Position numbers: made by a program | In this document: positions 1-3,000 of the stretch, in pieces | Layout: each line of letters starts with the position of its first letter | How positions within the stretch are numbered: the stretch's first letter is position 1 | Source of the DNA: a virus | Taxonomy: Duplodnaviria > Heunggongvirae > Uroviricota > Caudoviricetes | DNA: 4,741 nt | IMG/VR virus record: IMGVR_UViG_2526164604_000013 | Span: 1-4,741 of that record | Strand: one strand, 5' to 3'

Positions 1-3000
1 TTTCTGGTTTTACGTGCGCAGCGTCAACCTGGTGGGGAAATCTGCGTTTGTGGAAGTCAGCGGGCAGCCCAGCAATGATGGTGAAGGGTATCTGGAATTT
101 TTCCGGGAAAAAATAGGAAAACTGCATCTGGCTCAGGGGCTATGGGAGCTGATAGACAACAGCCAGCTTGCGGATGAGATGGCGGAGATGAAGACCACCA
201 TCACGGAAACCCGCAATGAAATCACACAGACGGTCAACAAAACGCTGGAGAACCAGAGCGCCACTATACAGCAGATACAGCGCGTGCAGAAGGACACAAA
301 TGATGACCTGGCTGCGCTGTACATGCTGAAGGTTCAAAAACGAAAGACGGCATTCCCTATGTGGCCGGGATTGGTGCAGGGATTGAGGATACTGATGGCC
401 AGCCACTGAGCAACATACTGCTGCTGGCTGACCGTATCGCGATGATAAATCCGGAGAGCGGCAACAGCACGCCGTTATTTGTGGCGCAGGGGAATCAGCT
501 GTTCATGAACGACGTGTTCCTGAAGCGACTGTTTGCGGTGAGTATCACCTCGTCCGGCAATCCCCCGACGTTTTCCCTGACGCCGGACGGGCGACTGACG
601 GCGAAAAATGCGGATATCAGTGGCAGTGTGAATGCGAACTCAGGGACGCTCAACAACGTCACGATTAATGAGAACTGTCAGATTAAGGGGAAACTGTCAG
701 CCAACCAGATTGAAGGCGATATTGTCAAAACGGTCAGCAAGTCTTTCCCCCGCACGAGCACTTATGCCAGTGGCACCATCACGGTAAGAATCAGTGATGA
801 TCAGAAGTTTGACCGGCAGGTCATGATACCGCCAGTGTTATTCCGCGGTGGTAAGCATGAGAATTTCAACAGTAATAACCAACAGTCATACTGGTATTCA
901 ACCTGCCGGTTAAGAGTGACCCGCAATGGTCAGGAGATTTTTAATCAGTCCACAACGGATGCTCAGGGCGTATTTTCCTCAGTTATAGATATGCCTGCCG
1001 GACAGGGGACGCTGACACTGACATTCACCGTATCTTCATCAGGAGCGAATAACTGGACACCAACAACCAGTATCAGCGATCTGCTGGTTGTGGTGATGAA
1101 AAAATCCACAGCAGGTATCAGTATCAGCTGAATTTTATAACCCATATACGGGCGCCAGAAATGGCGCCTTTTTATTGCAGAAAAGCGAGAGGTAATTATG
1201 CGTAAACTTTATGCCGCCATTTTGTCCGCAGCCATCTGTCTGGCCGTATCCGGCGCGCCTGCATGGGCGTCTGAGCAGCAGGCCACGCTGAGCGCGGGGT
1301 ATCTTCATGCCCGGACGAGCGCTCCCGGTAGCGATAATCTTAACGGGATTAACGTGAAATACCGTTATGAATTTACGGACACGCTGGGGCTGGTGACGTC
1401 ATTCAGCTATGCAGGAGACAAGAATCGCCAGCTTACCCGTTACAGCGATACCCGCTGGCATGAAGATTCCGTGCGTAACCGCTGGTTCAGCGTAATGGCG
1501 GGGCCGTCTGTGCGCGTGAATGAATGGTTCAGCGCGTATGCGATGGCGGGTGTGGCTTACAGCCGTGTGTCGACTTTCTCCGGGGATTATCTTCGCGTAA
1601 CTGACAACAAGGGGAAAACGCACGATGTGCTGACCGGAAGTGATGACGGTCGCCACAGCAACACGTCTCTGGCTGGGGGGCTGGCGTGCAGTTTAACCCG
1701 ACCGAATCCGTGGCCATTGATATTGCTTATGAAGGCTCCGGCAGTGGCGACTGGCGCACTGACGGTTTCATCGTGGGTGTCGGTTATAAGTTCTGATTAG
1801 CCAGGTAACACAGTGTTATGACAGCCCGCCGGTTCAGGCGGGCTTTTTTGTGGGGTGAATATGGCAGTAAAGATTTCAGGTGTACTGAAAGACGGCACAG
1901 GAAAACCGGTAGAGAACTGCACCATTCAACTGAAAGCCAGACGTAACAGCGCCACGGTGGTGGTGAACACGGTGGCCTCTGAAAATCCGGATGAAGCCGG
2001 TCGTTACAGCATGGACGTTGAGTACGGTCAGTACAGCGTTATTCTGTTGGTGGAAGGGTTCCCGCCGTCACATGCCGGGACCATCACCGTGTATGAAGAT
2101 TCTCAACCGGGGACGCTGAATGATTTTCTCGGTGCCATGTCGGAGGATGACGTCCGGCCGGAGGCACTGCGCCGTTTTGAACTGATGGTGGAAGAAGCGG
2201 CGCGTCACGCTGAGGAGGCGAAGAAGAATGCCGGAGAGGCGGAGACGTCCGCGAGGAATGCCGGCATATCAGCCAGTCAGGCAGAAGAGAGCGCGGCAAA
2301 TGCTGACACTTCAGCAGGGGATGCATCGGAGTCAGCCCGGCAGGCGGCAGAAAGTGCAGCCGCTGCAAAGCAGTCAGAGGAGGCGTCCTCGTCCTCGGCC
2401 TCTGCGGCCGCTCAAAAAGCCAGTGGGTCATTACAAAGTGCAACAGATGCTGAGTTGTCAAAAAAGACGGCAGAAAGTGCAGCCGGTAATGCAGCCAGGG
2501 ATGCAACGACCGCAGCAGAAAAAGCCCGGGAGTCAGCAGAAAGCGCACAGTCAGCGGAACAAAGCAGGATAGCGGCGGAAGAAGCCGTAAACAGAATCCC
2601 CACCGTGGTGGGACCTCCCGGGCCAAAGGGGGAACAGGGGCCCGCTGGCCCTCAGGGGCCGAAGGGTGATAAGGGAGAGCGCGGTGACACCGGCCCTGTC
2701 GGGGCAACCGGCGAACGGGGACCGGCAGGTGATGCTGGTCCGGCAGGCCCGCAGGGGCCGAAAGGTGACAGGGGAGAGCGGGGAGAGACCGGTCTGACGG
2801 GAAATGCAGGTCCACAGGGTCCAAAGGGAGACACCGGGGCAGCAGGCCCGGCAGGCCCACAGGGACCGAAAGGAGAAACAGGTGCGGCTGGCCCGGTGGG
2901 GGCAACCGGACCTCAGGGGCCGGGAAACATTATTGAGACAAACAGCATGGCTGGTTCCCGGATACAGATGGTGCGCTCATCACCGGACTGACCTTTCTTG

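Follow-up and report, generated by a model that had tools for sequence, protein, structure and literature searches.

A single-base frameshift in the prophage gene lom of Escherichia coli O157:H7 TW10119 is very probably an error in the draft sequence

The lom gene on a small prophage contig of the E. coli O157:H7 TW10119 draft genome is broken by the absence of one G, and we consider it very probable that this frameshift is a sequencing or consensus/assembly error of the deposited draft sequence rather than a feature of the DNA of the strain. The stretch of DNA analysed (referred to as the window) is the whole of the 4,741-bp contig AKMA01000013.1, and the exact 200-residue lom product was found on record in one contig only, AKMA01000013.1 of assembly GCA_000267185.1, identical to the window. 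An artefact is preferred because the indels of the contig are private, run in one direction, come without substitutions, affect coding as well as non-coding DNA and fall mostly at homopolymers. Such a pattern is what technical error produces, and it is not expected from prophage decay. The lom frameshift is thus most likely ordinary and not a biological finding.

The lesion was located based on the ORF list, translation and pairwise alignments. The ORF at positions 1198-1800 of the forward strand encodes 200 amino acids, which correspond to Lom through Ala159 (codon 1672-1674) and continue with 41 unrelated residues ending in WVSVISSD, so that the written product has no GVGYKF terminus. Translation of the neighbouring frame from position 1674 gave WGAGVQFNPTESVAIDIAYEGSGSGDWRTDGFIVGVGYKF, followed by a stop codon at 1794-1796; this is the displaced canonical C-terminus of Lom, comprising its last 40 codons (WGAGVQF...GVGYKF). 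The initial annotation, according to which the Lom frame is intact up to about position 1674 and the canonical C-terminus is encoded in the neighbouring frame, was borne out on both points, the correct reading extending to base 1673. Alignments were made with four complete genomes, Sakai (prophage Sp11), EDL933, F6667 and ERL05-1306. An extra base was present between window positions 1673 and 1674 in Sakai, EDL933 and ERL05-1306 (GGC G TGGGGGG versus GGC TGGGGGG in the window). The junction as written is GGCTGGGGGG, and the intact form is GGCGTGGGGGG. A further 131 loci with this sequence context were compared, taken from IMG/VR, GTDB genomes and the retrieved genomes: 129 had G as the extra base and two had A, whereas T did not occur and no locus lacked the base. 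The lost base had been proposed to be a T, but is a G, the third position of the Ala codon in GCG TGG. The G6 run immediately downstream is of normal length, six G being found in 131 of 132 other loci, and the deletion therefore adjoins the homopolymer and does not lie inside it. Insertion of one base after 1673 yielded a protein of 199 amino acids, and the repaired lom DNA had no mismatches to Sakai ECs_2160 or to the EDL933 gene encoding WP_001230508.1; the out-of-frame C-terminal coding sequence was likewise free of mismatches to intact alleles. The comparison with intact lom genes suggested in the initial annotation thus came down to a single missing base. The coordinates of the lesion, together with those of the other single-base deletions in the contig, are given in Table 1.

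Table 1. Features of the lom lesion and single-base deletions across the 4,741-bp window
Feature	Position	Strand	Context or evidence
In-frame portion of lom (signal peptide and mature part, ending with base 2 of codon 159)	1198..1673	+	ORF list and translation; 0 mismatches to ECs_2160/EDL933 lom; Pfam Ail_Lom positions 1-161
Deletion junction, GGC|G|TGGGGGG in relatives	1673..1674	+	Pairwise alignments; 131 loci
G6 run of normal length, immediately 3' to the deletion	1675..1680	+	Sequence; 131/132 loci
Canonical lom C-terminus, W160 to F199 and TGA, in the neighbouring frame; last barrel strands and terminal Phe	1674..1796	+	Translation; repaired protein; alignment to 9wso/OmpX/Ail
Out-of-frame tail of the written ORF, 41 residues, stop TAG at 1798-1800	1675..1800	+	Translation
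Deletion, A6 to A5	336-340	+	J, split into ORFs 14-409 and 361-1131
Deletion, T6 to T5	1169-1173	+	Tail of terminator-like hairpin (1150..1173) after J, non-coding
Deletion, G lost	1673/1674	+	lom
Deletion, CC to C	2946	+	stf frameshift; premature stop at 2989-2991
Deletion, T7 to T6	3029-3034	+	stf, second single-base deletion

A search against the Pfam family Ail_Lom (PF06316) matched the repaired protein over the entire profile (positions 1-199 of 199, 392.4 bits); the protein as written matched positions 1-161 of the 199 only (306.5 bits) and so did not give a full-length match. The C-terminal beta-signal with its terminal aromatic residue is absent from the written ORF and is encoded at 1674-1793 in the neighbouring frame. 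The gene also has the position expected of lom in a lambdoid prophage, between the tail-tip gene J and the side tail-fibre gene stf, an order based on the annotation of the matching Sakai Sp11 and EDL933 regions and on the Pfam families of the contig genes. Judged by its sequence, the lom gene is a member of the Ail/Lom family, with a predicted product that is truncated as written. The repaired protein could be aligned end to end with Lom of bacteriophage lambda (PDB 9wso) at E = 8e-50, and with two eight-stranded barrels, OmpX (1qj8) and Ail (3qra), at E of about 1e-19, and these alignments took in the C-terminal ...GVGYKF or ...GVGYRF; the last 40 residues of the written protein, in contrast, could not be aligned with any of the three. 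The 40 residues lost would correspond approximately to the last 40 of OmpX, that is, to its final two strands. The Pfam and PDB alignments agree with the earlier prediction that the frameshift removes the last strands and the C-terminal Phe signal.

In outer-membrane protein assembly, a barrel lacking the C-terminal aromatic signal is expected not to insert. Were the deposited sequence correct, Lom would retain the signal peptide and approximately six strands but not its final 40 residues, with the GVGYKF signal among them, and such a truncated Lom would probably fail to insert into the membrane and be degraded in the periplasm. The real gene probably encodes an intact, 199-residue outer-membrane beta-barrel of the Ail/Lom family identical to WP_001230508.1. 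The lom DNA of the window is the same as that encoding Lom of prophage Sp11 (O157:H7 Sakai ECs_2160, NP_310187.1) and EDL933 WP_001230508.1 except for the one missing base; without the G after 1673, residues 160-199 of the Sakai and EDL933 proteins are replaced by 41 unrelated residues. Gene order is also common to the window and to Sakai Sp11 and EDL933 (J, lom, stf, tfa, nleG2-3, nleG6-2).

The frameshifted allele was searched for in several collections. A 40-mer centred on the lom junction, designed such that a match was possible only if a 28-base word spanned the junction, had no match in 5,426 complete E. coli genomes and none in 50,697 phage records, versus 7,127 places in 3,303 records for the repaired 41-mer with the G restored, which served as positive control. 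Scans for the exact junction pattern also gave no matches in IMG/VR or in JGI metagenomes. An earlier megablast search with a 61-mer across the lom site had returned one record at 99% identity or above, possibly a near-full exact match; this ambiguous result was settled by the 40-mer query. The allele is thus private and its repaired counterpart common, and conservation of the frameshifted form, which together with its expression was named as refuting evidence in the initial annotation, was not found in genomes, phages, IMG/VR or metagenomes.

The lom deletion is one of several in the contig. Alignment with Sakai, EDL933, F6667 and ERL05-1306 revealed five single-base deletions and no single-base insertions. 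The initial annotation had described the lom lesion as the second single-base frame error; the first of these is real (five A in J at 336-340, where relatives have six), but the contig has five such deletions in total and not two. Three of the five lie inside runs of at least six bases, one is in a CC pair and the lom deletion is beside G6. Runs of this length make up 1.6% of the sequence, and the chance of at least three of five random deletions falling inside them is 3.7e-5. Outside a mosaic stf/tfa segment, comparison with F6667, the closest relative, showed no substitutions but three single-base deletions. The indels of the contig are accordingly clustered, of the same direction, enriched at homopolymers and present in coding and non-coding DNA alike. 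Homopolymer length was altered at three of the four sites other than lom; at lom itself the G6 run is unchanged.

The individual sites differ in how far they recur elsewhere. The A5 allele of J was present in two of 571 complete-genome records, AUSMDU00002545 and ATCC 43889, and J is annotated as frameshifted in both; the A-run at 336-340 is thus a recurrent indel site, of real or technical cause. An exact 61-mer with the T5 tail of the J terminator was found in no complete genome, and the T-run is T6 in 61 of 62 other loci. A locus with T5 (L055) was considered as a second case of the same error and rejected, as it belongs to a divergent prophage with 347 mismatches. No complete genome contained both stf deletions together; one of them also occurs in RM8352, an O121 strain whose stf is annotated as frameshifted. 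The stf gene of the window additionally has a 45-bp in-frame deletion at 2915/2916, in the collagen-like Gly-X-Y repeats, relative to F6667 and ERL05-1306; in comparison with Sakai and EDL933, too, these repeats are widely different. The 45-bp deletion may reflect true variation of the repeats or their collapse in the assembly.

These data bear on the alternative that the lom deletion is real, a recent and private inactivating mutation in TW10119 by which lom became a pseudogene during the decay of a defective prophage. Prophages of O157:H7 are often truly defective, and frameshifted prophage genes do occur in finished O157 genomes, as exemplified by the lom gene of F6667, which has G8 at the same run, as well as by the J and stf alleles described above; moreover, the lom deletion is beside a homopolymer and not inside it. 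Real decay would, however, need five independent private single-base deletions within 4.7 kb, all in one direction. The deletions come without substitutions except in the mosaic stf/tfa segment, one of them affects a non-coding T-run, and none of the other collections searched contains the lom junction allele. Long-read sequencing errors at homopolymers may in turn account for the frameshifts of finished genomes. We therefore regard a genuine pseudogene as unlikely. The initial annotation had likewise favoured sequencing or assembly indels over prophage decay, a preference supported by the private allele, the five deletions in the same direction and the draft status of the source.

The origin of the contig is compatible with an error of this kind. 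AKMA00000000 is the TW10119 draft genome (5.55 Mb in 56 contigs), generated in a 2013 project that used either Illumina HiSeq 100-bp reads or hybrids of Illumina and 454 FLX/XLR data, assembled with Velvet or Celera, the latter for the Illumina and 454 hybrids. The low contig count (56) suggests that TW10119 was one of the hybrid 454 assemblies, the paper naming none of the hybrid strains. The contig contains the 3' part of J, lom, stf, the gene for the tail-fibre C-terminal protein (tfa), nleG2-3 and the start of nleG6-2, covering the tail end of a lambdoid prophage that is of the same type as Sakai Sp11. Sequence similar to lom was found in up to 14 places per complete genome. The presence of many near-identical copies within one genome would have caused the region to be assembled as a short stand-alone contig, and the consensus of this repeat contig then probably lost single bases in or next to homopolymers, including the G of GCG-TGG adjacent to G6 in lom. 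The homopolymer-associated indel errors known from 454 pyrosequencing and from the consensus of repeat contigs in draft assemblies resemble the present case in comprising several single-base deletions in one direction, mostly in runs of A, T or C, and the likeness extends to the small multi-copy prophage contig and to a project using 454 reads. Unlike 454 homopolymer errors, lom has lost an isolated G beside a run that is not shortened, and the platform used for this strain is one that we infer. Besides the frequent true defectiveness of O157:H7 prophages, two observations count against an artefact: the lom deletion, with its isolated G and normal G6, is not a textbook miscall of homopolymer length, and the two complete genomes with J A5 mean that at least the J site varies in other assemblies.

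A functional role of the site was also considered, either as a programmed ribosomal frameshift or as a slipped-strand on/off switch at the G-run controlling Lom expression. In favour of such a role, the shift point is at a G6 run, which is G8 in F6667, runs of G can be slippery, and a -1 shift leads to the canonical frame. The two-frame arrangement of lom is not conserved, as it is found neither at the 7,127 places of complete genomes with the intact sequence nor at any of the 131 further loci, and inspection of the zero frame, with codons GCT GGG GGG CTG, identified no X XXY YYZ heptamer. A programmed -1 frameshift was rejected, as there is no slippery heptamer and no homolog with a two-frame arrangement. 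A phase-variable contingency locus based on slipped-strand mispairing was rejected as well, given G6 in the window and in nearly all other loci; with a G-run of normal length, slippage of the tract is not the cause of the shift. Overall, a functional site of either type is highly improbable. The F6667 lom pseudogene (E4U72_RS13880, annotated as 'frameshifted') represents the same gene, prophage type and G-run (positions 1976-1986 of its locus L003, corresponding to 1674-1680 of the window), but has G8 instead of G6 (+2), whereas in the window G6 is normal and the preceding G is missing (-1). It is scarcely credible that the GCGTGGGGGG site in lom is a mutational hot spot that repeatedly switches off Lom in O157:H7 lineages, with -1 in the window and +2 in F6667; if it were, a surface protein would be under a crude form of on/off control.

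With an error of the draft sequence as the preferred explanation, the result is mainly a quality flag: AKMA01000013.1 is unsuitable for calling J, lom or stf pseudogenes in TW10119. Small repeat contigs in draft assemblies of the 2013 era can yield false pseudogene calls in virulence-associated genes of prophages. Were the deletion real, it would amount to a further private pseudogene of a defective prophage, of minor biological importance.

Additional features of the contig were noted. Terminator-like hairpins at 1150-1173 and 1823-1852 flank lom, which would accordingly be transcribed as a small unit of its own between J and stf. The tail-fibre genes are followed by nleG2-3 (3512-4087) and nleG6-2 (4160-4741), which encode members of the NleG family of type III effectors (Pfam T3SS_NleG), the second gene being cut by the contig end. 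The nleG6-2 gene of ERL05-1306 is annotated as frameshifted and has A7, versus A6 at 4506-4511 of the window.
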